Sequence record: NZ_CP010801.1
Length of the DNA stretch: 64,000 bases
Direction: 5' to 3' (one strand)
Origin: a plasmid
Shown in pieces: positions 6,533 to 61,814 of this stretch. The position numbers and the translations under genes were made by a program. How positions within the stretch are numbered: the stretch's first letter is position 1; every line of letters begins with the position of its first letter. Under the pieces are notes generated by a model. The model was given only the letters and a program-made list of their open reading frames with translations, was not told the origin of the DNA and made no database searches.

Positions 6533-6534
6533 AT

Positions 6535-10860: not shown

Positions 10861-10872
10861 GGTGAACTCCGA

Positions 10873-11729: not shown

Positions 11730-11762
11730 CGTGCTTTATTTTCCGTTTTCTGAGACGACCCC
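11725..11762. repeat. terminal inverted repeat (mer end) of the mer transposon
   Basis: The reverse complement is GGGGTCGTCTCAGAAAACGGAAAATAAAGCACGCTAAG. It overlaps the merR stop codon. Confidence 0.85.
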
Positions 11763-11921
11763 TTTAAGGTTGAGGCAGCCGGAGTGGCCAAGATCGGCGA
11801 AGGTTGGGTGGGGCCGAATGCGCACAGCTTGGCGATCGATCCCGCCACGCATGAGATTTATCTTCCCCTGCCGGACATCGACCATCATCCGGTGATGCGT
11901 GTCTTGAAGCCCGACACCTGA
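11763..11921 (+). pseudogene. 3' fragment of a gene truncated by the transposon end (no start codon)
   Basis: The open frame directly abuts the IR and reads FKVEAAGVAKIGEGWVGPNAHSLAIDPATHEIYLPLPDIDHHPVMRVLKPDT*. It looks protein-like, but its identity is not established. Confidence 0.3.
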
Positions 11922-11975
11922 CGCACGCCGAACGCGCGACAATAGTCGAGCCCGCGCTCAACCACGATTGTCGAC

Positions 11976-13034: not shown

Positions 13035-13040
13035 GGCGCG

Positions 13041-14339
13041 ATGCCGGATATTGACCGCTATCTCGAAGCCGCGACCCGCGATAACACGCGGCGCAGCTAC
13101 CAATCGGCCATTCGGCATTTCGAGGTCGAGTGGGGAGGCTTCCTGCCGGCGAGCGCCGACAGCATTGCGCGCTACCTGGCCGACCACGCGCAGACGCTTG
13201 CCATCAACACGCTGCGTCAGCGCCTTGCTGCGATCGGGCAGTGGCACGTTTCACAGGGTTTCCCCGACCCGACCCGGGCGCCACACGTGCGGAAGGTGCT
13301 CAAGGGCATCCAGGCACTGCACCCTGCCCAGGAGCGGCGCGCCAAACCGCTGCAACTCATGCAACTGGAGCGATTGGTCGCGTGGCTCGATGCCCAGATC
13401 GCCACAGCTACGGTGGCAAATGCGGGCCGTCAACTCCAGGTCCACACCCGTAACAAGGCGCTGGTGCTGATCGGCTTCTGGCGGGGTTTCCGATCGGACG
13501 AACTGAGCCGGCTGCAGATCGAGCACATCACCGTCGAACCTGGGCGCGGCATGACCATCTTCCTGCCGCGCACCAAGACAGACCACGTTGGTACGACGCA
13601 CCGGGCACCGGCCTTGTCGCGTCTGTGCCCGGTGGCGGCCTACGAGGCATGGCTGGCCGCATCCGGCTTGACGCGGGGTCCGGTTTTTCGGCGCATCGAT
13701 CGCTGGGGGAAGATCGCCGACGCCGGGCTGCAGGCCGCCAGCGTCGTGCCCTTGTTGCGAACGTTGTTCCAGGAAGCCGGCCTGCCCGAGGCGGCTCGCT
13801 ATAGCAGTCACTCGCTGCGGCGCGGCTTTGCCTCCTGGGCCAACGCGAACCAGTGGGATCTCAAGATGCTGATGGAGTACGTCGGCTGGAAGGATGTCCG
13901 CTCCGCCATGCGCTACATTGACGCGGCAGACCCATTCGCACAACACCGTATCGAATCGGCGCTGGCGCCGCCTGCAGCACCTATGCCACCGCGGGCCATC
14001 CCACCCGCATCGACGGAGCAGCGCCCCATGGCTGTGCCCAAGCCCGTGGCTCAGACGCGCTTGATCGTGCGCCTCTATATCGAGCGCAACAGCAAGTTCG
14101 TGCGCGGCAAGTCCAAGGCGCGTCGCTGGATTGAGCAGTGCTGCTTGGCCCAGTACCAAATGCGGCCGCTGGAGGGCCCCCGCACCGAATACGAGATCGT
14201 GATGCCGTTTGCCGCTGGCCCCGAACTGGAACAGGCCATCGCGGAACTGATTGCGGAGATGCACGACCAGGCGGACCTGTGCAACTGCTTTGTCGAGGTG
14301 ACGCTGCACGATCCGGTGACCGATACCCACTGGAGCTAA
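13041..14339 (+). CDS. tyrosine site-specific recombinase (phage-integrase family) with a roughly 110-aa C-terminal extension
   Basis: 432 aa. An N-terminal core-binding-like region leads into a catalytic domain (…HSLRRGFASWA…VGWKDVRSAMRY…) carrying the R..H..R..Y signature. It is convergent with and adjacent to a Tn3-family tnpA. Confidence 0.8.
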   Translation: MPDIDRYLEAATRDNTRRSYQSAIRHFEVEWGGFLPASADSIARYLADHAQTLAINTLRQRLAAIGQWHVSQGFPDPTRAPHVRKVLKGIQALHPAQERRAKPLQLMQLERLVAWLDAQIATATVANAGRQLQVHTRNKALVLIGFWRGFRSDELSRLQIEHITVEPGRGMTIFLPRTKTDHVGTTHRAPALSRLCPVAAYEAWLAASGLTRGPVFRRIDRWGKIADAGLQAASVVPLLRTLFQEAGLPEAARYSSHSLRRGFASWANANQWDLKMLMEYVGWKDVRSAMRYIDAADPFAQHRIESALAPPAAPMPPRAIPPASTEQRPMAVPKPVAQTRLIVRLYIERNSKFVRGKSKARRWIEQCCLAQYQMRPLEGPRTEYEIVMPFAAGPELEQAIAELIAEMHDQADLCNCFVEVTLHDPVTDTHWS

Positions 14340-14364
14340 TCAGCCTGGGACTTGCGAATTGCCA

Positions 14365-17340
14365 TTATCCCGCACGCCGGCGAGGCGCTGCCTCCAGCAG
14401 GGTGTCCTGGTACTGGTGGATCGGGAAACTCAGGATGCCCCGGAAATTCACATGCGCGAAGTGGGCCGGGCCCATGCGGCGCAGCCAGTCGTCTTCGACG
14501 CGCAGCCCCTTGCGGCGCCACGCATCGACCGTGGCCTGCATACGCTGCGTGTTCCAGGCAATCACCAGGTTCGTCAGTAGGGTCAGCGATCCGGAAATCG
14601 CGATCATTTCGTCCTGACGGCGCCCGCGGTCATGTGCCACCTTGCTGGAATAGATGGCCCGCTGAAGCTGGTGGACCGACTCACCCCGATTGAGCAGGGT
14701 GCGCAACTCGCGGCGAAACTCCGCATTGCTGAAGAAGTCGCACAGGAACAGCGTGCGCAGCAGTTTGCCCAGGTGATCCGCAGCTTTGTGGATGGGGTCG
14801 CCTTGGGCGGCGCTGCCGAAGCGCTGCAGCGCGACAATCGCACTCACGCGTCCCGAATAGATTGACGCCACCAAGCGCAGCAACCCATCCCAGCCCTCAC
14901 GAATAGTCTTGAGCGAGATCTCGTGAGACGCTGCGGCCGACAAGCCGTCGCTCACTAGCAGCCCACGCGGCACGTACAGCTTGCGCTCGGACAGGTTGCG
15001 AAGCCATGGGCACAGGTCAAAGCCGAGCAATTTGGCCACCGCCATCCCCACGTTCGTATAGCCGTGCGTATCGACCGCGAGCCGGAGGAGCCCGCCGCCG
15101 GTACGGGTCTCGTTGTGGCGCAGCACGCCTTCGATCGCTACGCCGGTCTGCCGCTCGTTGAGCACCATGGGCTGGTTGTACGCGATACCGTGCTGGTCCA
15201 GCACGTGGGTGTAGATGCCAACCGCATGGGTGCGCCGGCGCGGATCGGCGCGTGCGTAAAACAAGTGGGGTGAGGTATCCAGGCTCATCGAGTCGCTCGA
15301 CGCCTGCTGACCGGTTCCCCACAGCTCGGTGATCGCGTGCGTGCGTTGGAACTCCACCACGCGCTCATTCGCGCGGCGCAGCCGCCCCGGCATCTCCAAC
15401 GCGCGCATCGCAGTAGAGACGTGCGCCGTGTCCAATTGCGGGATCATGGCCGCCACACCCTTGGCATCCAGTTCGGTACCGTGGGCGATCAATGCAGCGT
15501 AGAGCGAGATCAACTCGTGCGCATCGCGCGCCTTGCGTGCGAGCAGCACCTCGCTGAAATTCGTACGGGCATCCATCTCCAGGATCATGTCGGCAAACTG
15601 CGCGCTGCCAATGTCCTTGAAGAGCAGATCACGTGTACGCGTGGGTACACCGTCGGTTGGGGCCGCGTCCAGCGGCGACAGATGCAACACACCGTTCGCA
15701 TCCATCGTGAAGTGACCCGCCTCGCGGGCCTCGTCCAGCGCCGCAAGACCTGCCTTCAGATGATCCGTGAGGCGGTTGAGGTAGGTGTCAGCCTGGTTCG
15801 GCAAACCGATCGAGGACAGATACCGGTCCCGCTCCGATTCCCACTGTGTCGGCGGGATCAGCAACTGATCGCGCTCCCGGAACGACAGGCTGTGGCTGAT
15901 CCAGACCGTGCCGCGGCGCAGAGCTTTGCGCAAGCCCGTGATCGCGCAGGCTTCCATCGCGCGCAGCGCGCGCTTACGATCTTCGCCATCGACCAAATCA
16001 CGCCAGCTTGCGCTCACCGGCACATTGCAATCGGGCGGCAGTTCCGTCGCACCATGTTCGTACAGCTTGCCGATGACCTCAAGCTGCCGCATGACCGGCT
16101 CGTTGCCGTTTCCGGCCAGCTCCAATTCCCGCAGGGGCGCCAGCAGGTTGCGGATGCGGTGGTGATCTTCTGTGAGTGTTTCGCGCACGCTCGCGGCATG
16201 GCTTGCGGTGGGCTTGGCAGACAGGCCTTCGAGCAGCTGGCCGATGTCTGCCAGGCGCGCTTCGGCCGAGCGACTGTCGTCGTCAACCAGCCCCTTGATC
16301 TCGACCAGTTGCTGCCGGTATTGGAGCGCCGAGCGCGCTTGCTTCGTAGTGGTCTTGTTGTAGGCCTGCCTGATGAGATCGGAGACGCGGCGTCCGGCCT
16401 GGTAGGCCATCGCGTCCGTCAACTCCAGCAGGGTCACACGCAGGAAGAACAACAGTTCGATGGTGCGCGTGGACGTTTTCAGTTCGCGGATCTTGGCAGG
16501 ACGGCGGGCCTGGACGCGCTGGCCATAGGCGCGTTGTTTCTCGATCGGGATGCCATCCAACGCCCAGGTATGCGCGCCCAGTCCTTTGAGAAAGCGGATT
16601 TTGTCCAGCGTCTCGCTCATGGTGGACGGGCTGTGGCGTGCGGGCGGCGTCTTGAGCCATTCCAGCACGGTCGAACTGGAGGCCGCATGCTGGGCAAATA
16701 CAGCGGCCTCAGCCCGCGCAACCTGCTCCATGGGCACGACCGCTTCAATCGTGGCCAGCAGGTCACGCTCGATGCTCGCCCAAATGGAACGCGCCAAGTC
16801 CTGCAACGCGCGCGTGGAAGGGATCAGAATCCGCCGTTCGTACAGCCAGTAGTTGGCGTGCTGGACCAGCTCGTCCAGCGACAGCGATTCGGTGGCGTCC
16901 TGCCGCATCCAGGCTTCGAGGCCCGTCCACTGGTCTTCATCCAGCCGCCTCAGGCCGAGGTAATCGCAAGCCCAGACCTGATGCTCGTAAAGCGTCTTGT
17001 AGCGTTGGTAGATTGTGCGTAGTGACGCAATGGTCGGGGTTGGCAAGCCGAGCTTGTCGCCGACGTAGCGCAGCAACTGCCGGGGTAGGGTATTGAGCTG
17101 GTCGAGGGTGCGGCCGCTAGCACGCAGGAAAACCAGCTGAATGGCGGCGCCGGCTCGCCCGTCCCGTCGGAACTTGTTGTTAATCGCGGCGATATCGCTG
17201 CCGGTCAAGGCAAAGTAATGATCGATATCGAACTCGGATAAGCGGGCCGGTAAGCAGTCCTTTCCCACATAGCGAAATTGCAAGTCCGACATCTTCCGCC
17301 CCCGTTCAGGTGACGCGATCCGAAATCGCGGGGCGGACAT
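14365..17340 (-). CDS. tnpA: Tn3-family transposase TnpA (distinct from both the mer-transposon and IS1071 copies)
   Basis: 991 aa (an alternative start at 17292 gives MSDLQFRYVGKD...). Tn3-family conservation spans the whole length, e.g. ...AVDTHGYTNVGMAVAKLLGFDLCPWL... It is only distantly similar to the other two TnpA copies in the window. Confidence 0.9.
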   Translation of the reverse strand: MSAPRFRIASPERGRKMSDLQFRYVGKDCLPARLSEFDIDHYFALTGSDIAAINNKFRRDGRAGAAIQLVFLRASGRTLDQLNTLPRQLLRYVGDKLGLPTPTIASLRTIYQRYKTLYEHQVWACDYLGLRRLDEDQWTGLEAWMRQDATESLSLDELVQHANYWLYERRILIPSTRALQDLARSIWASIERDLLATIEAVVPMEQVARAEAAVFAQHAASSSTVLEWLKTPPARHSPSTMSETLDKIRFLKGLGAHTWALDGIPIEKQRAYGQRVQARRPAKIRELKTSTRTIELLFFLRVTLLELTDAMAYQAGRRVSDLIRQAYNKTTTKQARSALQYRQQLVEIKGLVDDDSRSAEARLADIGQLLEGLSAKPTASHAASVRETLTEDHHRIRNLLAPLRELELAGNGNEPVMRQLEVIGKLYEHGATELPPDCNVPVSASWRDLVDGEDRKRALRAMEACAITGLRKALRRGTVWISHSLSFRERDQLLIPPTQWESERDRYLSSIGLPNQADTYLNRLTDHLKAGLAALDEAREAGHFTMDANGVLHLSPLDAAPTDGVPTRTRDLLFKDIGSAQFADMILEMDARTNFSEVLLARKARDAHELISLYAALIAHGTELDAKGVAAMIPQLDTAHVSTAMRALEMPGRLRRANERVVEFQRTHAITELWGTGQQASSDSMSLDTSPHLFYARADPRRRTHAVGIYTHVLDQHGIAYNQPMVLNERQTGVAIEGVLRHNETRTGGGLLRLAVDTHGYTNVGMAVAKLLGFDLCPWLRNLSERKLYVPRGLLVSDGLSAAASHEISLKTIREGWDGLLRLVASIYSGRVSAIVALQRFGSAAQGDPIHKAADHLGKLLRTLFLCDFFSNAEFRRELRTLLNRGESVHQLQRAIYSSKVAHDRGRRQDEMIAISGSLTLLTNLVIAWNTQRMQATVDAWRRKGLRVEDDWLRRMGPAHFAHVNFRGILSFPIHQYQDTLLEAAPRRRAG

Positions 17341-48808: not shown

Positions 48809-49672
48809 TTGAATTTCAACAACATCCGCCGTTCTCTTCGCTTCGCTCTCGCCCTGCTGGCGGCCGTTGCGCTCGGTGGCACGCTTACGCCAGGGCTGGC
48901 GCGCCAACACCATCACCAACTCTCGCTGACAGACATCTTTGGCGCACCGGCACTGTCACAAGACTGCGAGAGTAACTTCTTGCAAGGCCAGGCCCCACAG
49001 GTCACGAATCCAAAGCTGGCCGCCCAAACGCGCGAGCTTTGCAACCCCGGGTATGCCGTGCTTCATTCAGGCATCACCCGCACGCCGCTTTGGAGCGCCG
49101 AACACCTGACGCAGCCTCGTATCCGCGCTTCGATCAATCTGAGCCGCGAAGACAGCTTCCGCTCCGATGATCGTCTGCCGATGGCTGAGCGTGCCGAGCT
49201 TGACGATTACGCACGATCTGGATGGGATCGTGGGCACATGAGTCCCAACAAGGACGCACCGGACAGAACCAGCCAGTCCGCGACGTTCCTGCTGTCGAAC
49301 ATGATCCCGCAGGCACCCAAACACAACCAGCACCTGTGGGAATCCATTGAACGAGCAACGCGCCAGCTGGCGCTCAATGGACATGACGTCTACGTGGTGA
49401 CCGGCCCGGCATTCCTCGGGAGCCAGTTGCGTCGCACCGGACACGTGGCCATTCCCTCGCACGTCTGGAAGGCTGTCTACGTGGCCGACACGGGTGAAGC
49501 TGCGGTGTGGTGGACGGAGAATACCAACGAGTCCGGGTATGATTTGATTTCGCTCGATGAGCTTGCCCGGCGCACCAGTATCGCCCCCTTTCCGGCCGCT
49601 TCTGCTGCATCTCGTGTGATGGTGGCGCGCCTGCCGAAGCCGCGGCAGCGCCATTCCAGCAACAACTTCTGA
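48809..49672 (+). CDS. secreted DNA/RNA non-specific endonuclease (Serratia-nuclease / EndoG family)
   Basis: Signal peptide (LRFALALLAAVALGG), the catalytic DRGHM motif and the NMIPQ...N metal-binding region. TTG start after AGGGGA. Confidence 0.8.
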   Translation: MNFNNIRRSLRFALALLAAVALGGTLTPGLARQHHHQLSLTDIFGAPALSQDCESNFLQGQAPQVTNPKLAAQTRELCNPGYAVLHSGITRTPLWSAEHLTQPRIRASINLSREDSFRSDDRLPMAERAELDDYARSGWDRGHMSPNKDAPDRTSQSATFLLSNMIPQAPKHNQHLWESIERATRQLALNGHDVYVVTGPAFLGSQLRRTGHVAIPSHVWKAVYVADTGEAAVWWTENTNESGYDLISLDELARRTSIAPFPAASAASRVMVARLPKPRQRHSSNNF

Positions 49673-51445: not shown

Positions 51446-52111
51446 ATGGCAAGCGTTCCATTGCCCCCCTATCGGGCATGCCGGGTTACAGGCGATTGGT
51501 TGGACGGCAGCCCCAGCATTCCGGCATTCACAAATGGCCGGCTCTGGAATGGATTTCAGCAGCCGCTGTTTTCCAGGCCATCTGTCTTGCAGCTGGCCCT
51601 GCTGATGCCAGGCCAGGTGGAATTCGACGCGTCGGGCACGGCCGTCATCGTCATCGCCGACGATGGCGAGCCATTCCTCGTCAATGGCCAGCAAATCGAA
51701 GTCAATGGCAGGCGCATCGAAGTGTTTGCCGTTGGCTCTGGATGGTGGTGCTGGGAAGAAGCAGACACCGGAATCGGTCCGGCCACCGATGCCCCGCTGG
51801 ACAAGCGCTTCGATGACGTGCTTTTCGGCACAACACAGGAAGAGTTCGACGCGCTGGAAGTGCATGGCGTGCGTAACGTACGCACCCCAGCCGGCGAGAA
51901 CGTGGGGATCCGCGAAGTCGACGATGTGAATCCCGAACTTTTCTCGGTCTACGTGCACTTCCGCGCGGGCGGGGTTGAATGTGTAGGTGATCACGGCACA
52001 CTACATCTGGCACTGAAGTACGCCCGAGAGCTCGCCAATCGATTCGGATGCCCAATCCACAACTTCGCGCCGATGCCCGTACCACCACGCGCACCGAGTA
52101 CAGCTGTCTGA
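51446..52111 (+). CDS. hypothetical protein, paralogous (N-terminal domain) to 17740..18156
   Basis: AGGAG RBS. See the shared-motif finding below. Confidence 0.5.
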   Translation: MASVPLPPYRACRVTGDWLDGSPSIPAFTNGRLWNGFQQPLFSRPSVLQLALLMPGQVEFDASGTAVIVIADDGEPFLVNGQQIEVNGRRIEVFAVGSGWWCWEEADTGIGPATDAPLDKRFDDVLFGTTQEEFDALEVHGVRNVRTPAGENVGIREVDDVNPELFSVYVHFRAGGVECVGDHGTLHLALKYARELANRFGCPIHNFAPMPVPPRAPSTAV

Positions 52112-52114
52112 GTC

Positions 52115-52152
52115 AAAGCCCGCCTGTCCAATGGACCAGGCGGGCTTTTTTT
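52115..52152. terminator. rho-independent terminator
   Basis: AAAGCCCGCCTG-loop-CAGGCGGGCTTTTTTT. Confidence 0.8.
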
Positions 52153-52231
52153 CACACTTAGAGGCTGAAGAAACAGAGTGTGGTACAACAAACACCAAAG
52201 CAACTCAGGGGGGTGAAATGAAGAAAAATGG

Positions 52232-52621
52232 GTGGCTGCACTCGCTACGGCGTCACTTCTGATCCCTGGTATATCGTCAGCGAGTGATTGGTATGCTTAT
52301 TCGAGTGACAGTGATGCAAGGCACTTGATCGACATTTCCAGTCTTGTCGTTAAGCCCGACGGCACTCGCTTGGCGTGGGTGGCGCATATCTTCAATAAGC
52401 CTCAAGAAGCACCTAATCACAAGCGCTACGCCAAGCTTTCCACGAGAGTGCTCGTCGATTGCGGACAAAGGAAATTGGCTTTGCTTTCTACCTATTTCTA
52501 CGACGGCAAAGGTACTCTTGTTCAAGGCACATCATTCGATTTCATAAAACTGGTAGACGTACCTCCCGACTCAAATGGAGAAACATTAATGCGCGCAGTC
52601 TGCGCGGCGTCTCCACGGTAA
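52232..52621 (+). CDS. small secreted protein, hypothetical (possible homopolymer frameshift at start)
   Basis: GTG-initiated ORF whose N-terminus AALATASLLIPGISSA-SDW reads as a signal peptide. An out-of-frame ATG AAG AAA lies 14 nt upstream. Confidence 0.45.
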   Translation: MAALATASLLIPGISSASDWYAYSSDSDARHLIDISSLVVKPDGTRLAWVAHIFNKPQEAPNHKRYAKLSTRVLVDCGQRKLALLSTYFYDGKGTLVQGTSFDFIKLVDVPPDSNGETLMRAVCAASPR

Positions 52622-52642
52622 GCGCGTAGCCTTAGCCTGAGT

Positions 52643-52678
52643 AAAACCCGCCTGTCGTAGGACACGGCGGGTTTTTTT
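52643..52678. terminator. rho-independent terminator
   Basis: AAAACCCGCC-loop-GGCGGGTTTTTTT. Confidence 0.8.
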
Positions 52679-52836
52679 GCCTCTGACGTGATTAAGAGCG
52701 AGCCGTTTTGATCTGCGGACGTTGCGAGAATATTTTAATGCATGTATTGTCATGTCACGCAACATGCTGATTTATTGGGATCGGTTTCGCCTGACCCCAA
52801 ACTACTTACAGATCCACTCACGCTTTAAGGCAACCC

Positions 52837-53133
52837 ATGTCCACGTACGCAGAGTTAATGCAGCAGATCAACGATCTCAAGGTGCAAGCCGAGCAACTTC
52901 GAATTCGCGAGCGCGACCAGTTCATTGCTGAAGTGCGCGAGAGAATCCACGCGTACGAGATCACCCCCGCAGACTTGTTCGGAAAACCCAAGGGCGTCAA
53001 GGTAGTCGGGACGGTCGCGGTCAAATACCGGGACACCAACGGGAACGTCTGGTCCGGCCGCGGAAGGCAACCGTTCTGGCTGGTCAAGGCGCTGGCGGGG
53101 GGGAAGAAGCGCGAGGACTTTCTAGTTTCCTGA
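52837..53133 (+). CDS. H-NS-like nucleoid-associated protein (xenogeneic silencer family)
   Basis: 98 aa. An N-terminal coiled-coil dimerisation region leads into a C-terminal ...YRDTNGNVWSGRGRQPFWLVKAL... H-NS-type DNA-binding motif. The upstream region is AT-rich. Confidence 0.75.
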   Translation: MSTYAELMQQINDLKVQAEQLRIRERDQFIAEVRERIHAYEITPADLFGKPKGVKVVGTVAVKYRDTNGNVWSGRGRQPFWLVKALAGGKKREDFLVS

Positions 53134-54178
53134 GCCCTTACATCTTCACGCTATCCAATGGCATCGCGTAAAAACGCTACGCCATACTTTACAAAGTCAC
53201 GCAACGCTCTATAATAAGCCACATCGAGTTTGACTGGGCCGAGCGCGTGAGCGTCGAGGAAATGGCCCAAAGCTGATGCGGGTAAACGTCGCGCAAGACC
53301 GCATCTAACCCCCGGACATGGACGCCTGGCGGGACAGCGAAACAGTCCAGGTCGGGTCTCGGATCCGACGCTGCCGAGCCTGGGGAAAGGCCCTCCGCGG
53401 ACGCGGATCAAGGGCGGCACAACCAGGTGCACATCTGGCGCCGGAGCGAGTAACCGGCCATCCCTTACGCGAGGAGTCGATCCGCCGGGCCTGTCGGACA
53501 GCCTGGCGGGGATCCCAGGGACCGACTTAACCGGGGCGCTTCGCTGGGCTGAAGAACCGGGGATTGGGCATAGCAAAACCCAGCATCCTCATGCATGGCG
53601 ATTGCCGACTTGGGCTTGATGCCGTAGGGACTGGCCTGCAGAGCGGGAAAACAGTCGCCAGCCGTGAGGGAACGCGCGGGCTGACGCGCAAGGGTCGGGC
53701 GGCACGAAACCTTTCCGCGCGAGAGCCGCGACTAGCGGAAGCCAGACAGAGCTCAGCACTGGCCCCTCAACCTTCACGCATGGCGATTCGCTGAAAGTCG
53801 GCTACCCCAGTCCCGCCGACTACATGCCGGCCCGCGCAAGCCGGATGAGCTTGGGATCGAGTCGCCAGCCGTGAGGGAACGCGCAGTGGTGATGCGCTGT
53901 ACCGGTAGACGGGCGACGCGCGTCTGAAAGCCGCAAGCGGGCCTCGCGTGAGCCGCGCAAGCCGGGATACACACCTCCGGCCCCTCACCCCAAACCGGCC
54001 GCACGATAGGGCGGACGCTGGAACCCGTCACCAGCGCAGCAAGACGGCAGTGAAAGCCTGCGCCGGAGACGTAACCGGCACCAATACCGATGGTGGCGCT
54101 CAGCATGTATAGACGCGCCATTTTTTTGGCCCCAAACAGCATTAATACACGCATCCGGCACTTTTTATTGTTTCGACG
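53134..54178. other. about 1 kb non-coding region with internal structured direct repeats (candidate structured RNA / regulatory leader)
   Basis: No credible ORF: all six-frame ORFs here are Arg/Pro/Gly-rich. One repeat pair is 53586..53675 and 53768..53885, both ending GTCGCCAGCCGTGAGGGAACGCGC. A second pair is 53429..53458 and 54057..54084 (...GCGCCGGAG.GTAACCGGC...). Confidence 0.3.
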
Positions 54179-54883
54179 ATGACCACCACCCCCAAATCCC
54201 TGCGCGCCCGTGTCGAAGAGGTCGTGCGCGAAGCTGGCGGACAGTATTCGCCGGGCCTGCGCGTGGCGCTGCCTGCAAGCCAGGTGCTTGAAATCGCTGG
54301 AGCGCTCGAGCGCGGCGTGCCGTCGCCCGAGGACGCGGCGCGCACAAAAGCGGCGCGCAGGGAAATCAAGAGCGAGTTGCATTCCGAGTTGGCCGCGGGC
54401 CTGAATCTGATGCGGGCGGCGATCGCCAAGCGCATTGGCGAGGCTGACGGCGACATGCGCGCGGCCATCCTGGCTAACGCGATGCTCGACGCGACGGAAT
54501 CCGCCGTGGAAGAAGCAGGGTACTTCGCGACCAACACGACGCTGCAGCGCGCCGCCGTGGACCGGTACATCGAGCGTGTCGCGATCGCGTTCGGAGCGCT
54601 GGAGCGGCTGCATGCCTTCGCCAAGGCCCAGCTGCCGGAACCCATCGATCCGGCCATCGCTCCCGCAGCCATGGCCGTGAAAGACCTGGATCTGTCCACA
54701 CGCACGCATAACTGCTTGCGGCTGGAAGGCATCAAGACGCTGGCTGACCTGATGGGCTGCCGCGCCGATGAATTGCTGCGCATTCCGAACCTCGGGCGTA
54801 AGGGGCTGGCGGAAATCGAGCACGAACTGGCGGCACGCGGCTTCCAGCTGGCCACGAGCCGCAATCAAGCCGGAGCTCGTTGA
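54179..54883 (+). CDS. protein with C-terminal RNA polymerase alpha-subunit CTD-like domain
   Basis: 234 aa. The C-terminal ...VKDLDLSTRTHNCLRLEGIKTLADLMGCRADELLRIPNLGRKGLAEIEHELAARGFQL matches the alpha-CTD helix-hairpin-helix signature. The N-terminal 160 aa are uncharacterised. Confidence 0.6.
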   Translation: MTTTPKSLRARVEEVVREAGGQYSPGLRVALPASQVLEIAGALERGVPSPEDAARTKAARREIKSELHSELAAGLNLMRAAIAKRIGEADGDMRAAILANAMLDATESAVEEAGYFATNTTLQRAAVDRYIERVAIAFGALERLHAFAKAQLPEPIDPAIAPAAMAVKDLDLSTRTHNCLRLEGIKTLADLMGCRADELLRIPNLGRKGLAEIEHELAARGFQLATSRNQAGAR

Positions 54884-55797
54884 TGATCGCAATCGACCTG
54901 TTCGCCGGCGCTGGCGGATTCTCGGAGGGGGCCAAGCTGGCCGGGGTGCACGTCGCTTGGGCAGCCAACCATTGGCCACTCGCCGTGCAATTTCACGCAG
55001 CCAACCATCCCGGCACGTCGCACAAATGCCAGGACCTGCAGCAGGCCGACTGGCGGGATGTTCCGCGCCACGACATACAGCTGGCGTCTCCGGCGTGCCA
55101 AGGTCACAGTCCGGCACGCGGCAAGGAACGGCCGCACCACGATGCGCTACGCAGCACGGCATGGGCCGTGGTCAGCTGCGCTGAATACCATCGCAGCCCG
55201 ATCGTCCTGGTAGAGAACGTCCCGGGCTTCAGGGACTGGACTCTATACCCGGCTTGGGAACACGCGATGCGCAGTCTGGGCTACAGCGTGTCCCCGCATC
55301 TGGTGGATGCCGCCGATCATGGCGTGCCGCAGCACCGCGAGCGGCTGTTCCTGGTCTGCACCCAGAGCAAGGCTCCGCTGCAGCTGCGCCTGCCGCGCCG
55401 CGAGCACGTCTCCATTGGCAGCGTGATCGATTGGGACGCTCACACATGGACGCCCATCGACAAGCCCGGCCGCAGTCCGAAAACCTTGCAGCGCACCGAG
55501 GCCGGCCGCGCTGAATTCGGCTCGCGCTTCGTCGCACCCTACTACAGCAGCGGCAGTGGTTTGAAAGGCCGCAGCATCCACCGACCCATCGGGACCATCA
55601 CCACACGCGACCGCTGGGCGGTGATCGACGGTGATCGCATGCGGATGTTGCAGGTCCCCGAGATCAAGGCGGCAATGGGCTTTTCGCCCGACTACACGCT
55701 GCCGGCAACCAAGAAGGAAGCCATGCACATGCTGGGCAATGCCGTGTGCCCGCAAGTTGCCGCCGATCTGCTGAACGCGCTGCGCAACGCCGCGTAG
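54883..55797 (+). CDS. DNA (cytosine-5)-methyltransferase
   Basis: Motif I IDLFAGAGGFS, motif IV PCQ, ENV, and QHRERLF. Its start overlaps the upstream stop. Confidence 0.9.
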   Translation: MIAIDLFAGAGGFSEGAKLAGVHVAWAANHWPLAVQFHAANHPGTSHKCQDLQQADWRDVPRHDIQLASPACQGHSPARGKERPHHDALRSTAWAVVSCAEYHRSPIVLVENVPGFRDWTLYPAWEHAMRSLGYSVSPHLVDAADHGVPQHRERLFLVCTQSKAPLQLRLPRREHVSIGSVIDWDAHTWTPIDKPGRSPKTLQRTEAGRAEFGSRFVAPYYSSGSGLKGRSIHRPIGTITTRDRWAVIDGDRMRMLQVPEIKAAMGFSPDYTLPATKKEAMHMLGNAVCPQVAADLLNALRNAA

Positions 55798-55810
55798 ACA
55801 AGGGCGTCCC

Positions 55811-56359
55811 ATGACGAACACTACCGAGAGCACACACACCATGCCGCGCATCTACCTCGCTGGTCCTGATCTGTTCTTCCCGGATGCCGAAGCGCGCTAC
55901 GACGCGCTGAAGGATCTGTGCGCACGCTATGGACTCGAAGGCGTCGCGCCGACGGATGGCCAGACCTTCCCCATCGAGCCAACTGCGGCCTGTGCGCGCC
56001 GCATTCGCGAGCACGACCTTTCGCAGCTGCGCAGCGCGGACGCCGTGCTCGCCAACATTACGCCGTTTAACGGTCTGGAGCCGGACTCGGGCACGGCCTA
56101 CGAAATTGGCTTTGCTGCCGCGCTCGGGATGCCTGTCGTCGCGTACTGCCTCGATGGCCTGGACACTCGAACCCGAACGCTGCGCGCGGGGCGGCTGCTC
56201 AATGTGCATGGTCGTGATGATGAGGGCCTGCTCGTCGAGAACTTCGGGCTACACGCCAATCTGATGCTGTGCGCAGAACATCCAACGTTTTCTTCGGCGG
56301 ATGAGGCAGTTCGCGCTCTCGCCGAGATCCTATTTGGCGCTGCGCAAGCCGCTGCCTGA
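55811..56359 (+). CDS. nucleoside 2-deoxyribosyltransferase-like protein (Ndt/Rcl family)
   Basis: ...RIYLAGPDLFFPDAE... and ...DSGTAYEIGFAAALGMPVVAY... match the family signature. An alternative start at 55841 (MPRIYLAGP) is likely. Confidence 0.75.
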   Translation: MTNTTESTHTMPRIYLAGPDLFFPDAEARYDALKDLCARYGLEGVAPTDGQTFPIEPTAACARRIREHDLSQLRSADAVLANITPFNGLEPDSGTAYEIGFAAALGMPVVAYCLDGLDTRTRTLRAGRLLNVHGRDDEGLLVENFGLHANLMLCAEHPTFSSADEAVRALAEILFGAAQAAA

Positions 56360-56465
56360 AGCCATTACCGCTCAATGGGCGCCTGGCGCAGCAGCCGTTT
56401 TGCAGGCGGCAAGCTGTGAAGCAGGGGGAGCCAGGCGCCCACCCTTCAATGCTCGTAGATAGCCG

Positions 56466-56648
56466 ATGGATACAACTCTCGAAGAAGCACAAGCCGCTGC
56501 CGCCAGATTTGCGGACGAAAGCTGCTTACCCCAAACCGTCTACCTCTTGAAGGACTCCGGCGGCTGGTGGCACACCAATCCGCTGGCCAGCTTGCTGGTG
56601 TCGGCCGAAGTCTTCGTGACCGTGCTGCCACTGCGCTACTTCGCGTGA
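56466..56648 (+). CDS. small hypothetical protein
   Basis: 60-aa ORF between operon genes. Weak support. Confidence 0.25.
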   Translation: MDTTLEEAQAAAARFADESCLPQTVYLLKDSGGWWHTNPLASLLVSAEVFVTVLPLRYFA

Positions 56649-56696
56649 GATCTGAAATGGGAGTCCAACTTCGCTTGAGATGACAGGGGACGCTTC

Positions 56697-57743
56697 ATGG
56701 CGGAAAACACAAACATTGCATGGTGCGATCACACCTTCAATCCGTGGGAAGGTTGTCAGAAGGTTGGCCCCGGCTGCGACCACTGCTACGCGGAGACGCG
56801 AAATGCTCGATTCAGTGGCGGTACGTCCGTCAATTGGGGGCCTGGCGCGCCGCGTCGGCGCACTTCGGCTGCCAACTGGAGAAAGCCGATAGCCTGGAAC
56901 AGGAATGCTGGCGAGTTTTACGCCCAACACGGGCGAAGGCAGCGCGTCTTCTGCGCGAGCCTCGCCGACGTGTTCGACAACGCAGTCGATCCGACGTGGC
57001 GCGAGGATCTATTCGCTCTGATCCGCGCAACCCCAAATCTTGACTGGCTGCTGCTCACAAAACGCATCGGCAATGTACCCAGCATGGTTTCGCTTATTCC
57101 GGGCTGGCTGCCAGAAAACGTCTGGCTCGGCGCCACGATCGTCAACCAGGCCGAGGCCGATCGCGACATCCAGAAGTTACTCGAGACGCCCGCGCGCGTG
57201 CACTTCCTGTCGATCGAGCCGATGCTTGGGCCGATCAACCTGGAGAGCGTGGCGTGGCCGTCGATAGCCGAGCATCGCGTCGATGCGCTACGAGGAGGCT
57301 ACTGGAACAAGGCGGGCGTGCTGGCCTGTGGGCCGGCCGCGGGTCTTGGCGAACCTCGCGGCGGATTCACGAACCACAGCGATATGCCGGGGCGCATCGA
57401 CTGGGTGATCGTCGGCGGAGAGAGCGGTCCTGGCGCGCGGCCAATGCACCCGGACTGGGCTCGAGATCTGCGTGACCAGTGCGTGTCGGCCGGCGTGCCC
57501 TTTCTCTTCAAGCAATGGGGGGAGTTTGTGCCGGGCTCTGGCGACTTCGGTGCTGGGCAATACGTCACAGCGGCTGTTGCACGCGACGGTCGCATTGTCC
57601 CAGGTGGATTTGACGCGGCCGCCTATCCGCGCGGCGCAACTTCCGCAGACGGCTGGGCAATGGTCCATCGGGTTGGGAAGAAGGCGGCCGACCGCCTGCT
57701 CGACGGCGCCCAGCACGACCAATTTCCGCATGTGCGCTCGTGA
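56697..57743 (+). CDS. phage Gp37/Gp68-family protein (DUF5131; three-Cys-motif TcmP-like)
   Basis: N-terminal IAWCDHTFNPWEGCQKVGPGCDHCYAE signature. GACAGGGGA RBS. Confidence 0.75.
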   Translation: MAENTNIAWCDHTFNPWEGCQKVGPGCDHCYAETRNARFSGGTSVNWGPGAPRRRTSAANWRKPIAWNRNAGEFYAQHGRRQRVFCASLADVFDNAVDPTWREDLFALIRATPNLDWLLLTKRIGNVPSMVSLIPGWLPENVWLGATIVNQAEADRDIQKLLETPARVHFLSIEPMLGPINLESVAWPSIAEHRVDALRGGYWNKAGVLACGPAAGLGEPRGGFTNHSDMPGRIDWVIVGGESGPGARPMHPDWARDLRDQCVSAGVPFLFKQWGEFVPGSGDFGAGQYVTAAVARDGRIVPGGFDAAAYPRGATSADGWAMVHRVGKKAADRLLDGAQHDQFPHVRS

Positions 57744-57752
57744 GGAATAGCC

Positions 57753-58052
57753 ATGCCTTGCTACATCGAACGAACGAAGGACGGCGGCGTGATGTTCCTG
57801 TGCGGCGACCTTGGGCCGCATTGCGCAGCCGATAAATGCTGCGCGCTGGGCGTCAATTTGTGCGATTTCCCCGTAGGCGAGGGCAAGACCTGCGACTTGC
57901 CACTGTGCAACAGCCACGGCTACGAGGTTGCGCCGAACGTGCACTACTGCCCCGGCCATCTCATTCTGTGGAACGCATACCGAGAATCTGGCGCGGTTGA
58001 GCGCGAGCTTTCCAACGTGGTTCCGCTTGGGCGGACGCCGAAGCCGGAATGA
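57753..58052 (+). CDS. small Cys-rich protein, hypothetical
   Basis: 99 aa with 11 Cys residues (CGDLGPHCAADKCCALGVNLCDFP...CDLPLCNSHGY...YCPGH). Confidence 0.4.
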   Translation: MPCYIERTKDGGVMFLCGDLGPHCAADKCCALGVNLCDFPVGEGKTCDLPLCNSHGYEVAPNVHYCPGHLILWNAYRESGAVERELSNVVPLGRTPKPE

Positions 58053-58092
58053 GCAAGTAATCCGTCTGCCAACACCATCATCCAACGCACGC

Positions 58093-59268
58093 ATGCAAAC
58101 GCTCTTACCGCTCAACTTCGTTCCGCGCACGCCACCCGCTTCTTTCTGGCAGCCGGTCAGCGCAAAGACGGACTTGCCGCCCGTGACCACCACGCCGGAG
58201 GTTGCCGCCGCGCTCTCTCGCGACTGCGTGGTCGCCGTGGGCGTGAGCGGCGGCAAGGATTCAGTCGCGTGCGCGCTCGCCACCGCGCGCTATTTGGATG
58301 AGATCGGGCACACTGGTCCGCGCGTGCTGATCCACTCGGATCTGGGGCGCGTCGAGTGGCGCGACAGCCTGCCATCATGCGAGCGCCTGGCGCACGCGCT
58401 GGGCTGGGAACTGCTGGTCGTCACGCGCCAAGCCGGCGACATGCTGGCGCGATGGGAGGGCCGATGGCAAAACAACGTCAAGCGCTATGCTGACCTGGCT
58501 TGCGTCAAGCTGATACTGCCGTGGAGCACGCCGTCTATGCGCTTCTGTACGAGCGAGCTCAAGGTCGCCATCATCTCGTCGGCGCTGCGCAAGCGATGGC
58601 CGACGCAGGAGATCGTCAACGTGTCGGGCATCCGCCGCCAGGAAAGCGCCGCACGAAGCAAGATGCCTGTGTCAGTGCGCATGCCAAAGCTTTGCCGGAA
58701 AGGAGCCGAAGGGCTTTCATGGCACCCGATCATCGAGTGGAAGGTGCAGGAGGTGTTCGGAGCCATCGCGGACGCGGGCCTGCAGCTGCACGAGGCCTAT
58801 ACGCGCTATGGCATGAGCCGCGTCAGCTGCGCGTTCTGCATCATGTCGTCGGCTGCCGACCTGGAGGCCTCTGTGTCGTGTATCGACAACCAGCCGGTCT
58901 ACCTGCAGATGGTCGAGCTCGAGGCTGCCAGCACGTTCGGATTCCAGTCTGGGCGTTGGCTGGCCGATGTCGCACCCCATCTGCTATCCACGGACCTGCA
59001 AGCCAAGGTGGAGCGTGCCAAGCTGGCCGCTGCCGAGCGTGAAGCCTTGGAGGCCAGGCTGCCGGCACACCTGCTGTACACCGGCGGCCTGCCAACGGCT
59101 GTGCCGACGTTCGATGAGGCTACCTTGGTCGGGCAGATCCGCCGGCGGGTTGCCGAGCTTGTCGGCATCGAGGTCAGGTATCTCCATGCCGCCGAAATCC
59201 GCGACCGATACGCGGAGCTTCTTGATCGGCGCGAGGAGCATGCGCCGAACTCTCTCGTCATCGTTTGA
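58093..59268 (+). CDS. PAPS-reductase-like PP-loop ATP pyrophosphatase family protein
   Basis: 391 aa from the internal ATG. PP-loop VVAVGVSGGKDSVACALA. PAPS reductase / DndC-like fold family. Confidence 0.7.
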   Translation: MQTLLPLNFVPRTPPASFWQPVSAKTDLPPVTTTPEVAAALSRDCVVAVGVSGGKDSVACALATARYLDEIGHTGPRVLIHSDLGRVEWRDSLPSCERLAHALGWELLVVTRQAGDMLARWEGRWQNNVKRYADLACVKLILPWSTPSMRFCTSELKVAIISSALRKRWPTQEIVNVSGIRRQESAARSKMPVSVRMPKLCRKGAEGLSWHPIIEWKVQEVFGAIADAGLQLHEAYTRYGMSRVSCAFCIMSSAADLEASVSCIDNQPVYLQMVELEAASTFGFQSGRWLADVAPHLLSTDLQAKVERAKLAAAEREALEARLPAHLLYTGGLPTAVPTFDEATLVGQIRRRVAELVGIEVRYLHAAEIRDRYAELLDRREEHAPNSLVIV

Positions 59269-59552
59269 TCCTGAACATCGCTATGAGTCCATCTAATCTC
59301 GATGCCCCTGGGTACGGCAATGCCCTGGACGTCCTGCGTCGCATCGTGGAGGAAGCTGACCGTGATCCATTCATACCGGTCGGCCACGTCATTGAGCACG
59401 TCGTGCCGCAGGCGCGCGCCGCTCTCGCGGCAGCGCTTGCCGACGAGGTGTGCCAGTTCTGCGGCGTGCGGACCTTTTCGCCGTGCGATGCCCCGCCTGC
59501 TGATGTGTGCGAGCAGGCTTTGATGCGTAATATGACGATGGCCGAGCGCTAA
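59265..59552 (+). CDS. small hypothetical protein
   Basis: 95 aa. Its start overlaps the upstream stop. Contains a CQFCG...C motif. Confidence 0.35.
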   Translation: MILNIAMSPSNLDAPGYGNALDVLRRIVEEADRDPFIPVGHVIEHVVPQARAALAAALADEVCQFCGVRTFSPCDAPPADVCEQALMRNMTMAER

Positions 59553-59628
59553 TTAAGGGCGAGGAGTAGAACGTTAGGCGCTTTGGATCGGCCTGCGCAC
59601 CTGTCTTGCCTGAATGAAGCCGAGATAT

Positions 59629-60744
59629 ACTGTACATATATGTGGGGTATCCACTTAGCTCCACCAGCACAGGATAACTGGATGGATATACAGTATTCGT
59701 ATGCTACACCGTCTCGACCCGGTTCACTACATCCGCATACGTCACAGGGCCGGTAACGACCGCTTGCTGAAGCAGCCGATAGAACAAGAGACCGCGCGAG
59801 CCCGAGGTGCGGCGATTGAAGCGGAACACGAACTCATCCAGGTAGGCGTCCAGATGTTCGGGCTGAACCGAGCCGTGATGCGTGCCGAGAATCCAGCGTT
59901 TGACCAGTGAAGCAACCCGATGAACGCCAGCCATCGAAACGTGAGCTGGCACCTCGGCACCCAGCATCACATTGCGCTGGTGTTCGTAACCCAGCTTGCT
60001 CAATGTCCGGTAGGCTGCTGACCCGTCAGTTCTGACTTGGGCGCCAGGCTCAATCGACGCCTGTATGAACGGGATGACGCATTCGGCGCCATCGTTCTGG
60101 ATGCGCTGCAAGCGTATCCGGCCGAAGCCCTTGGGCTGAAGCATTTCGACCGCAAGGATGACCAGCACTTTGCTCGTGCGGTTCTTGCGGTTGATGGCCG
60201 AGATAGGGGCCTCTCGGTCCGTGATGGCCAGGTAGGTCTCGTCAACCTCTACACACCCCTTCAGGCGTTCGCGGTCCGGTCGCACCATAGCGCGGCGAAA
60301 CCGGTGCAGCATCGTCCAAGCGGTCTGGTAGCTTCCCAGGCCTAGCACCCGTTGCAAACCAAGGGCGCTGACGCCTTGCTTTTGATTGGTCAGATACCAC
60401 GCACCAGCCAGCCACACACGTAGCGGGGTACGGGTCTTGTCGAATATCGTGCCAGCGGTCACCGTCGTTTGGTGAGCGCAACTGCGACACATCAGGCGCG
60501 TGCGGCTCGACCGATAAGGCTCGGCCGCTACGCCGCAATCAGGGCAAACGAACCCCTGCGGCCACCGCAATCCCTCCAGGTAGGACAGGCAAGCCTCTTC
60601 CGTCCCGAACCGGTCCAGAAACTCGTTCCAGTTACGGGGGTAGTCCTTCCCCGGTTCTGGGGGTAATATCTGCTTTACCTGTATATCCATCCAGTGATTC
60701 TGGCATGGCTGGAGCTAAGTGGATAGCCCTTACATATATACAGT
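59629..60744. mobile_element. IS1595-family insertion sequence (approximate ends)
   Basis: A single 328-aa transposase gene is flanked by imperfect inverted repeats of about 65 bp (ACTGTACATATATGTGGGGTATCCACTTAGCTCC... on the left, its reverse complement on the right). Total length is about 1.1 kb. Confidence 0.65.
59704..60690 (-). CDS. IS1595-family transposase (ISXO2-like, zinc-ribbon N-terminus + DDE domain)
   Basis: N-terminal zinc ribbon CPDCG...CRSC, then a DDE transposase domain (ISXO2-like). The start codon lies inside the IR. Confidence 0.85.
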   Translation of the reverse strand: MDIQVKQILPPEPGKDYPRNWNEFLDRFGTEEACLSYLEGLRWPQGFVCPDCGVAAEPYRSSRTRLMCRSCAHQTTVTAGTIFDKTRTPLRVWLAGAWYLTNQKQGVSALGLQRVLGLGSYQTAWTMLHRFRRAMVRPDRERLKGCVEVDETYLAITDREAPISAINRKNRTSKVLVILAVEMLQPKGFGRIRLQRIQNDGAECVIPFIQASIEPGAQVRTDGSAAYRTLSKLGYEHQRNVMLGAEVPAHVSMAGVHRVASLVKRWILGTHHGSVQPEHLDAYLDEFVFRFNRRTSGSRGLLFYRLLQQAVVTGPVTYADVVNRVETV

Positions 60745-60759
60745 TGTTTCGAGGGTGTC

Positions 60760-61163
60760 ATGGAAGTGCATGTAACGCCACTTAAAAGCAAGGGACAGAC
60801 CAAACAAAAGTGGTTACGGGCAATGGGCAACGCAGTTGGAACGCTGAGAATCCGAGACAAGCGCGATACCGTTAATCTTCGCAGCACGCGCGTTGCAGAG
60901 CTCTTCAACCACCGCCCCGTCCGCGCCGAGGGCGAGAAGTGGATCCTGTTCGATGTCCAACTTGTCTGGGCCAAGGGGGGCAGTTCCTGCTGTCCGGCTA
61001 CGAGCGCCACGTCCAGTGGAACGGCGACACTACGGATTACGCCCAGAGTTGGCTCGTCAGCGTGCCGGCGCCGGGAACGTCGGTCGCGATCGTCCCAGAC
61101 ACCGTCGAGGCACCAAAACAGACGCCGATCGAAGACCCGGCTGCCGGCAGCCTACGCATTTGA
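60760..61163 (+). pseudogene. hypothetical gene interrupted by a frameshift in a G6 homopolymer (60975..60980)
   Basis: Frame A (MEVHVTPLKSKGQ...VWAKGG) and a +1 frame (QFLLSGYERHVQWNGDTTDYAQSWLVSVPAPG...SLRI*) join into one 134-aa protein if the G-run were 7 nt. GAGGG RBS. Confidence 0.45.
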
Positions 61164-61169
61164 CCAACA

Positions 61170-61814
61170 ATGAATACATCTGATAGCGGGTTCGTAGAAG
61201 TCAAAAGCAAAGTAGCAAAGCCCGAATTGCAGGCATTCATGGAACACCTGAGCGCCTTCCATGAGGGCGACACGGATGCCCAGCGGGCGGCAGAGATCCG
61301 CGCTCAGGACGAGAACGACGGCCTGGATTCACTGAAGCGCCTATTCGATCTGGCGAACGGGAGCAGTGGACAGTGCCGTCACGTCGCGCGCTTCCTGCTT
61401 GGTCTGTACAACGGCACTCGATTCCCGTTCGATCTGACTGACTTCCGATGCGTTGATGCCTCGATCTTTGAGGACATGATGCGAGTGCTGCGGATGGACA
61501 GCCGGCCACGGGCAGAAGTCCACACGTATTTCCCGCGCGGCGGCGAGCGTTTCGAGCAACTGGCGCAGGACTGGAATCTGTACAAGACCGAGTGGGAGCC
61601 GGCGGGCAGCGGGTTCACGCGCAGACGCAGCGCGTACCGCCTCGACATCGAGGCAGGCGTGCGCGGCGAGACGCTGGTGTGGAAGTGGTCTGTATCGCGG
61701 TGGGGCGGCGACAGTAAAAAGGTTGCCAGCGGCGCGGCATGGTCGGCCGAGAGTGCGAAGTACGAGATTGATGCCTGGTTCGAGCGCGGCGGCGAGACGC
61801 CTTACGAAGACTGA
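61170..61814 (+). CDS. hypothetical protein
   Basis: 214-aa ORF with protein-like composition and a conserved-looking segment CRHVARFLLGLYNGTRFPFDLTDFRCVD. Confidence 0.5.
   Translation: MNTSDSGFVEVKSKVAKPELQAFMEHLSAFHEGDTDAQRAAEIRAQDENDGLDSLKRLFDLANGSSGQCRHVARFLLGLYNGTRFPFDLTDFRCVDASIFEDMMRVLRMDSRPRAEVHTYFPRGGERFEQLAQDWNLYKTEWEPAGSGFTRRRSAYRLDIEAGVRGETLVWKWSVSRWGGDSKKVASGAAWSAESAKYEIDAWFERGGETPYED

Follow-up and report, generated by a model that had tools for sequence, protein, structure and literature searches.

The stretch of plasmid DNA analyzed here (64,000 nt of sequence record NZ_CP010801.1; henceforth the window, in which all positions are counted) carries at 54179-59552 eight open reading frames (ORFs) on the plus strand that have the look of an operon. 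They encode, in order, a protein that ends in an RNA polymerase alpha-subunit C-terminal domain (alpha-CTD), a C5 DNA cytosine methyltransferase (MTase), a nucleoside 2-deoxyribosyltransferase (NDT), a 60-amino-acid (60-aa) protein, a DUF5131 (Gp37/Gp68) protein, a Cys/His-rich protein, a PAPS-reductase-like PP-loop protein (here PAPS-like), and a 95-aa protein. An earlier reading of the letters alone (the sequence-only reading) had taken the six recognizable families for one novel system with DUF5131, PAPS-like, and NDT as its core. Our comparisons contradict this: the six-family module is not conserved outside near-identical copies of one plasmid block. The region is a typical, recently reshuffled plasmid accessory stretch in which a novel system is not supported, and the interest that remains lies in two large families of uncharacterized enzymes and in an RNA motif of the leader.

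Layout of the array

The ORF listing places all eight ORFs at the expected coordinates and facing one way, with successive gaps of -1, 13, 106, 48, 9, 40, and -4 nt and hence two stop/start overlaps (Table 1). The tight co-directional packing described in the sequence-only reading is thus real. A G+C content at third codon positions (GC3) of 0.70-0.80 fits genuine genes in a replicon of 62% GC. Public gene calls agree with the ORFs, including the MTase start at 54883 and the PAPS-like start at 58093 (391 aa); the latter replaces a TTG at 57928 that had been proposed as the start of the PAPS-like gene. Pfam matches bear out the earlier assignments to the alpha-CTD, C5 MTase, NDT-like, DUF5131, and PAPS-reductase-like families, as well as the presence of an H-NS-like gene nearby. 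The 60-aa protein has no match in Pfam, NCBIfam, PHROG, or PADLOC; the 95-aa protein has none in Pfam, NCBIfam, or PHROG and is not found beside PAPS-like genes elsewhere.

Table 1. Features of the array, its leader, and its immediate flanks (positions in the window)
Feature	Position	Strand	Remarks
H-NS-family gene, 98 aa	52837-53133	+	Pfam Histone_HNS, E 9e-15; directly upstream of the leader
Sigma-70 promoter-like site, TTTACA-16-TATAAT	53188-53215	+	11/12 consensus; ~960 nt upstream of the first gene
RNA motif, copy A	53587-53772	+	Blocks CYTCAYGCATGGCG ... GCCAGCCGTGAGGGAAYGC ... CCGGCCCCTCAA; covariance model 89.6 bits
RNA motif, copy B	53772-53990	+	Abuts copy A; covariance model 75.3 bits; alignments A8, A9
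Terminator-like hairpin and U7	54093-54127	+	~50 nt before the first gene; in the minimum-free-energy and centroid folds of 53986-54140
alpha-CTD protein, 234 aa	54179-54883	+	Orphan N-terminal domain (~1-160) and Pfam RNA_pol_A_CTD at residues 164-218 (C-terminal 55 residues), E 4e-16
C5 DNA cytosine methyltransferase, 304 aa	54883-55797	+	Pfam DNA_methylase, E 2e-38; PHROG 116; start overlaps the upstream stop
Nucleoside 2-deoxyribosyltransferase (NDT), 182 aa	55811-56359	+	Pfam Nuc_deoxyrib_tr, E 4e-33
60-aa ORF	56466-56648	+	Gene call in public assemblies; without homologues
DUF5131 (Gp37/Gp68) protein, 348 aa, predicted radical-SAM enzyme	56697-57743	+	Pfam DUF5131, E 2e-89
Cys/His-rich protein, 99 aa	57753-58052	+	Weak PHROG 13747 match only; none in Pfam or NCBIfam
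PAPS-reductase-like PP-loop protein, 391 aa, iron-sulfur (Fe-S)-type cysteines	58093-59268	+	Pfam PAPS_reduct, E 9e-9
95-aa ORF	59265-59552	+	Overlaps the PAPS-like stop codon; without homologues
IS1595-family insertion, interrupts the array	59642-60730		Transposase 59704-60690, - strand

Co-occurrence of the cluster families

Co-occurrence was tested in annotated plasmids, in diverse genomes, in viral contigs, and within the family of the element itself; L-numbers are the labels of the compared loci and contigs. In PLSDB, 299 records hold a homologue of PAPS-like, 392 one of DUF5131, and 116 one of NDT. The nearest plasmid homologues of PAPS-like (L009-L011) lie on plasmids of Burkholderia vietnamiensis and Stutzerimonas and on pQBR103, those of DUF5131 (L012, L013) on a Cupriavidus taiwanensis plasmid and a Burkholderia glumae plasmid, and that of NDT (L014) on a Paraburkholderia plasmid, where it adjoins an H-NS gene. 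Apart from this H-NS gene, tblastn over 8-9 kb on either side of these six loci found no other cluster family. The MTase gene is 84% identical in DNA sequence to one on a Xanthomonas oryzae conjugative plasmid (L154), and the annotation of 7 kb on either side names no other cluster genes there. Four plasmids carry both PAPS-like and NDT, with the two 70-90 kb apart. The alpha-CTD protein has no full-length homologue in PLSDB, where its matches are rpoA genes only. In nucleotide searches against plasmids and phages, only the MTase and short fragments match, and the cluster is in neither PLSDB nor INPHARED.

Genome loci were anchored on 80 DUF5131 homologues of 37-63% identity from many phyla and scanned within 10 kb. 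PAPS-like and alpha-CTD occurred in none of them, NDT in one, a C5 methyltransferase in seven, and the Cys-rich protein in four, at varying positions. At 59 viral PAPS-like loci, DUF5131 was found in eight, a C5 methyltransferase in 13, and every other cluster family in none. The trio of DUF5131, PAPS-like, and NDT, whose conservation as a neighborhood had been put forward as the check on a single system, therefore occurs in 0/80 and 0/59 loci, and no conserved co-occurrence emerged. Clustering of the neighbors of PAPS-like genes likewise gave no constant partner: the largest group, an MT-A70 methyltransferase, is present at 9 of 55 loci, and no neighbor cluster contains a counterpart of the 99-aa or the 95-aa protein that could be a conserved small partner.

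The kinds of genes that surround these families are nonetheless informative. When the closest ORFs of 150 aa or more that flank the anchor gene, one per side, are scanned with Pfam, DNA methyltransferases are 20 of the 108 neighbors of PAPS-like genes (MT-A70 10, C5 7, DUF4942 2, and N6/N4 1, where we assume that DUF4942 may be tallied as methyltransferase-associated), compared with 8 of 147 neighbors of DUF5131 (Fisher p 0.002). Neighbors of DUF5131 also include Lar, SSB, RecT, RdgC, ParB, and integrases. Both families thus live in the methyltransferase, recombination, and early-gene regions of mobile elements. In prophage-like contigs (L095-L149), PAPS-like is often translationally coupled to methyltransferases, with MT-A70 upstream and C5 downstream (e.g., L125:4072-8266). 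On the Burkholderia glumae plasmid bglu_4p (L013), DUF5131 lies at 8001-9056 inside an F-type tra operon, between the gene downstream of a TrbI/VirB10-like gene and DsbC/TraV; this location hints at a role connected with transfer.

The encoded proteins

The MTase scores 109 bits against the NCBIfam dcm model (cutoff 100.65). No restriction enzyme model was matched in the cluster or in the scanned flanking proteins with Pfam and PADLOC, in agreement with what had been noticed before, and by homology the MTase is therefore an orphan without a restriction partner, of the kind borne by conjugative plasmids. NDT scores 114.5 bits in Pfam against a cutoff of 28.8. Its closest solved structures are the Trypanosoma brucei and Leishmania deoxyribosyltransferases (E 1e-20), whose segment GTAFEVG aligns with GTAYEIG of NDT; we take the Glu of this segment to be the catalytic residue.

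DUF5131 is listed at RadicalSAM.org as a subgroup of Megacluster-5 of the radical S-adenosylmethionine (SAM) enzymes. Its C20-x6-C27-x2-C30 and GGES motifs are invariant in 37 homologues. By sequence it has no match in the PDB; its AlphaFold model (predicted local distance difference test, pLDDT, 78.5, with low confidence around the cluster-binding cysteine loop) has as its nearest fold the radical-SAM barrel of spore photoproduct lyase. The two share a Cys triad near the N terminus, a GGE-type motif, and membership in Megacluster-5, whereas their identity is 8% and the cysteines of DUF5131 are spaced C-x6-C-x2-C rather than C-x3-C-x2-C. The three-Cys motif, the GGE-type motif, and the partial TIM-barrel fold together predict a radical-SAM enzyme, which may plausibly carry out its radical reaction on DNA. 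The resemblance to TcmP suggested in the sequence-only reading was not recovered: there is no TcmP match, and the sole NCBIfam match, to "radical SAM mobile pair protein A," is weak and far under its cutoff.

In PAPS-like, the SGGKDS motif and C152, C246, and C249 are invariant among homologues. Its model (pLDDT 85.8) matches TtuA, the PAPS domain of FAD synthase, TilS, APS reductase, and NcsA. The modeled fold is that of ATP-dependent enzymes that adenylate and then substitute their substrate, including Fe-S-dependent sulfurtransferases.

A search of 5.8 billion proteins with the alpha-CTD protein returned only the protein itself. A HMMER scan with its N-terminal 164 residues found one remote homologue, which is 34% identical, has the same two domains in the same arrangement, and comes from a metagenomic contig (L292:3010-3669). 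By these searches the protein appears to be a near-orphan that is essentially unique to this element. A conserved pairing of alpha-CTD with a methyltransferase was considered and rejected, as the sole remote homologue lies in a different small-gene array with no methyltransferase beside it.

Plasmid setting and a recurring block

The array resides on a Ralstonia conjugative plasmid of ~175-190 kb, with the transfer and pilus genes to one side of it and the genes for partition and replication to the other. Upstream of it lie genes for TrbL, TrbI, a PilN-type secretin, a PilQ-type ATPase, and a shufflon PilV, which belong to a thin-pilus transfer system of the I type; past the transfer genes come Tn3-family transposons with mer genes. 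Downstream, public assemblies with identical DNA (contigs of 175-187 kb) show a PIN/Phd toxin-antitoxin pair, an integrase, ParA, ParB, RepA, and a RecD2-like helicase. The sequence-only reading had spoken of a mobile island. Its mobile-element setting is correct; the element itself is a conjugative plasmid.

Within the element family, a 6170-bp block (52128-58297) recurs at 100% identity in L002-L005 in differing flanks, which include KfrA and cnr/chr metal-resistance genes. It contains an adhesin-E-like gene, the H-NS gene, the leader, the first six array genes, and the initial part of the PAPS-like gene (68 codons). On the right the block always breaks off at one point, 205 nt into the PAPS-like gene. 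Of the 23 contigs read with an identical DUF5131 gene, 15 have the PAPS-like gene truncated at codon 68. In other plasmid relatives, transposons replace the cluster beside the downstream genes. The insertion sequence (IS) that interrupts the array is 99.5-99.6% identical to copies on Ralstonia plasmids, one of them annotated as ISRama1-family, and locus L006 is otherwise identical and lacks the IS1595 insertion. These copies, like the names that public sources give to the proteins, point to Ralstonia as the host.

The leader and its tandem RNA motif

The promoter-like site in Table 1 is the only strong plus-strand site in 52000-61200, where the total number of sites is no higher than in shuffles; it is the presumptive promoter of the array. 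Between it and the first gene stand two copies of an RNA motif, a unit of ~170-220 nt with three blocks that are invariant in both copies. A 16-mer from the central block recovered 13 viral contigs, and at least nine of these, plus one metagenome contig, hold all three blocks; copies outside the window are those in L279, L281-L286, L288, L290, L291, and L165. Their alignment shows a 15-bp interrupted stem around variable hairpins, followed by a second hairpin. In this alignment, a small sample seeded on the conserved core, 96.8% of the cells in the helices are paired, and sliding the partners lowers this to 35-51%; compensatory changes occur at four pairs, and the covariation score lies above all 500 shuffles. 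Rfam 15 gives no match to the motif even at E 10.

The 1-kb spacer that contains the motif has no plasmid homologue by blastn, no Rfam match, and no tRNA or transfer-messenger RNA by ARAGORN. As one large structured RNA it was rejected, since it folds no better than shuffles (z -1.6, +0.7). Of the "long structured non-coding region" described in the sequence-only reading, then, the conserved motif in two copies stands, and the overall structure of the spacer does not.

The motif may be a leader-embedded regulatory RNA. The position of the promoter-like site ~960 nt upstream, together with the hairpin and U7 just before the first gene, suggests attenuation or read-through control. A hairpin and T-run also come after the motif in L165, L281, L286, and L291, as read from the sequence. 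Elsewhere it stands just before the terminase and portal genes of one contig and upstream of an antirepressor gene in another. It may be comparable in position to two phage RNAs, c4 of P1 and CI of P4. Two further ideas about the motif were tried and rejected. It does not accompany PAPS-like or DUF5131 elsewhere, as a regular-expression scan and a covariance-model scan of 95 sources (1.9 Mb) returned only the two copies in the window. Nor does it look antisense to the 500 nt downstream, where matches reach only 7-10 nt, like those of upstream controls.

Two side observations concern the variable parts of the motif. Those of copies A and B (53604-53634 and 53794-53814) contain complementary 8-mers in the same order, GCCGACTT/AAGTCGGC and GGGACTGG/CCAGTCCC; the same stretch forms a 22-nt inverted repeat that is 73% complementary. 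Chance may account for these matches, as ~0.6 such 8-mer matches are expected at random. In two contigs (L290:1875-1983, minus strand; L285:5948-6092, plus strand), the stem encloses an insert with a tRNA-like D-arm, GTAGCTCAGTCGGTAGAGC, and a T-arm, GGTTCAAATCC or GGTTCGAATCC; ARAGORN calls no tRNA in either insert.

Discussion

With confidence only a little better than even, we regard the array as a patchwork accessory operon of a Ralstonia plasmid, devoted to establishment or anti-restriction, whose members act independently. The placement of their nearest homologues among unrelated neighbors supports the independence of the modules, and the frequent truncation of PAPS-like suggests that this gene is dispensable. 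The array would have been built from single-gene modules that circulate separately among plasmids, prophages, and integrative elements. Only the orphan MTase has a role that is well grounded, by homology: it would pre-methylate plasmid DNA so that it is spared by the restriction enzymes of new hosts. DUF5131 would be a radical-SAM enzyme that modifies or repairs DNA, or possibly RNA. PAPS-like, whose PP-loop fold is similar to those of TtuA and DndC, would use ATP to activate a nucleic-acid target by adenylation before introducing a substituent, probably sulfur. NDT would act on deoxynucleosides or deoxynucleotides and alter their pools, and the alpha-CTD protein may be a lineage-specific factor that contacts DNA or RNA polymerase and is translationally coupled to the MTase. 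Transcription probably starts from the site at 53188-53215 and passes through the ~960-nt leader, with its two RNA units and terminator-like hairpin, so expression is probably gated. These enzymes would work separately on DNA or nucleotides to aid establishment of the element, rather than as steps of one pathway. The broader theme of mobile-element DNA modification or anti-restriction, also raised in the sequence-only reading, is plausible in view of the orphan MTase, the PAPS-like genes beside methyltransferases, and the radical-SAM model of DUF5131; it is the discrete new system that falls away.

It is useful to compare the array with the anti-defense islands of plasmid leading regions (Samuel et al. 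2024, PMC11541004), of which orphan methyltransferases are a hallmark (PMC11541004). Both consist of small genes in one uniform orientation on a conjugative plasmid, both include an orphan MTase and many shuffled families of uncharacterized function, and both have an unusual regulatory region upstream. Unlike those islands, the array has no homologue of ArdA, KlcA, PsiB, SSB, or Frpo that we found, and its upstream element is an RNA-type motif behind what would be an ordinary double-stranded promoter, rather than a recognized single-strand promoter. Several points weigh against a patchwork establishment operon. No member of the ArdA, KlcA, PsiB, or SSB families appears among the ~28 proteins scanned in 39-63 kb. 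Neither a relaxase nor oriT, relative to which a leading region is defined, turned up in the window or over a further 10 kb. The very tight spacing with two stop/start overlaps is also what a co-functional operon would be expected to show. In 14% of viral loci DUF5131 is no more than 10 kb away from PAPS-like, so the two may be loosely linked in function. Finally, tblastn at E 1e-3 may overlook very divergent members, notably methyltransferases.

The most direct rival is that MTase, DUF5131, PAPS-like, and NDT form one co-functional pathway of hypermodification or self-marking, in which they work one after another on DNA or on its precursors. The close packing speaks for it, as do the nucleic-acid or nucleotide chemistry of all four enzymes, the enrichment of PAPS-like beside DNA methyltransferases, and the occasional adjacency of DUF5131 and PAPS-like, which are direct neighbors at L106. 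We nevertheless consider it decidedly improbable. Co-occurrence is lacking, with the trio in no locus of either set and the nearest homologues of each gene among unrelated neighbors; most of the sampled copies have a truncated PAPS-like; the alpha-CTD protein, like each of the three small proteins, is essentially confined to this element; and PAPS-like and NDT are more than 70 kb apart on the plasmids that carry both. In addition, Pfam finds in the cluster no enzyme of precursor synthesis or DNA insertion, such as a TGT/DpdA-like protein, a deoxynucleoside monophosphate (dNMP) kinase, or a hydroxymethylase. At the opposite extreme, the genes could be unrelated cargo accreted at an insertion hotspot, with NDT serving nucleoside salvage and the rest miscellaneous or without plasmid function. 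This we hold to be unlikely, if less so than a single pathway. The IS1595 insertion, the Tn3/Tn5053-mer junctions, and the shared breakpoint in the PAPS-like gene are signs of a hotspot, and homologues of NDT are frequent on large replicons of Rhizobium and Burkholderia with no obvious conjugative character. On the other hand, the array is uniform in spacing, orientation, and GC3, a single strong promoter-like site with an elaborate leader stands upstream, and the recurrence of PAPS-like and DUF5131 in phage and plasmid regions of methyltransferases and early genes points to a shared selective theme.

A defense system of the host or the element, such as a phosphorothioate module akin to Dnd, Ssp, or BREX type 4, or one of the DUF5131 candidates of PADLOC, is the least credible of the alternatives, and we give it very little weight. 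It is suggested by PADLOC matches of PAPS-like to BrxP (E 3e-11), DndC (E 2.5e-6), and SspD, of DUF5131 to PDC-M41B and PDC-M30B (E ~1e-49), and of the MTase, whose best model is DrmMII. However, the PAPS-like matches are partial, covering only ~80-200 residues, and the DndC equivalog TIGR03183 reaches 16.8 bits against a cutoff of 290.4. Every characterized phosphorothioate system requires a P-loop nucleoside triphosphatase (NTPase) partner, DndD, SspC, or BrxC (PMC12914056), and no P-loop or ABC/SMC-type domain was found in the eight proteins with Pfam, NCBIfam, or PADLOC. PAPS-like shares with those systems the PP-loop fold, the SGGKDS motif, and three conserved cysteines whose positions would suit an Fe-S cluster, with TtuA as the nearest fold. 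It differs in having its own C-terminal helical domain and in being a single gene with changing neighbors in plasmids and prophages, and the locus has no DndD, SspC, BrxC, DndE, or SspB and no cysteine desulfurase nearby. Beyond the methyltransferase models, the two "B" components matched by DUF5131, and the partial PAPS-like matches, PADLOC found no other defense components in the cluster: no nuclease or effector, none of the DISARM core genes drmA, drmB, and drmC for a helicase, a DUF1998 protein, and a PLD nuclease, and no PDC match in the other seven proteins, hence no "A" partner for DUF5131. Of a type II restriction-modification pair the array has the methyltransferase; no cognate restriction endonuclease was matched in the cluster or in the scanned flanking proteins.

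A further possibility, which we judge rather unlikely, is that PAPS-like, and perhaps DUF5131, is a stand-alone enzyme that marks DNA otherwise than by methylation, or alternatively that the leader RNA is a new class of phage/plasmid regulatory RNA. The predicted PAPS-like enzyme could lay down a mark such as a thio-modification without an NTPase partner, as a single-gene anti-restriction or anti-Dnd/Ssp device. Its placement by orphan methyltransferases could then reflect a shared role, and an RNA of the new class could gate the early expression of such genes. The methyltransferase islands of temperate phages (PHROG 424/2302; PMC13551039) are comparable; they carry the same PAPS-like family at 45-60% identity, often flanked by MT-A70, C5, or N6/N4 MTases and with anti-defense operons regulated by Aca. 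There, an anti-defense or DNA-modification role has only been proposed for the phage PAPS reductases (PMC13551039). Unlike the phage genes, the PAPS-like gene studied here is plasmid-borne, is separated from the MTase by four genes, and is truncated in many copies.

The patchwork reading that we favor makes this cluster an illustration of how plasmid accessory regions are built by shuffling single-gene modules, and it shows that tight packing alone is unsafe evidence for a pathway. Given the numbers of relatives found (>8000 for DUF5131 and >2400 for PAPS-like), working out the biochemistry of either family would assign functions to thousands of genes on mobile elements, and it could bring to light new DNA chemistry or new tactics against restriction. 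The leader RNA motif, which Rfam lacks, may have a wider bearing on how phages and plasmids time their expression.

Neighboring genes

Farther from the array, 357-17340 of the window contains three Tn3-family transposase genes, a mercuric reductase gene, and genes for an EAL/DUF3330 protein and an integrase, a transposon pile-up that adjoins the transfer genes. The only nuclease gene nearby encodes a non-specific Endonuclease_NS protein at 48809-49672, ~5 kb upstream of the cluster and 7 kb from DUF5131; at four of the 80 genome loci and on one plasmid, too, an Endonuclease_NS gene lies only a few kb from DUF5131 (L012, L022, L037, L043, L044). Just past the IS insertion, 61170-61814 encodes a DUF7673 protein. 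Paucimonas lemoignei (L040) has a 57%-identical homologue of it, ~6 kb away from DUF5131 and a C5 methyltransferase.

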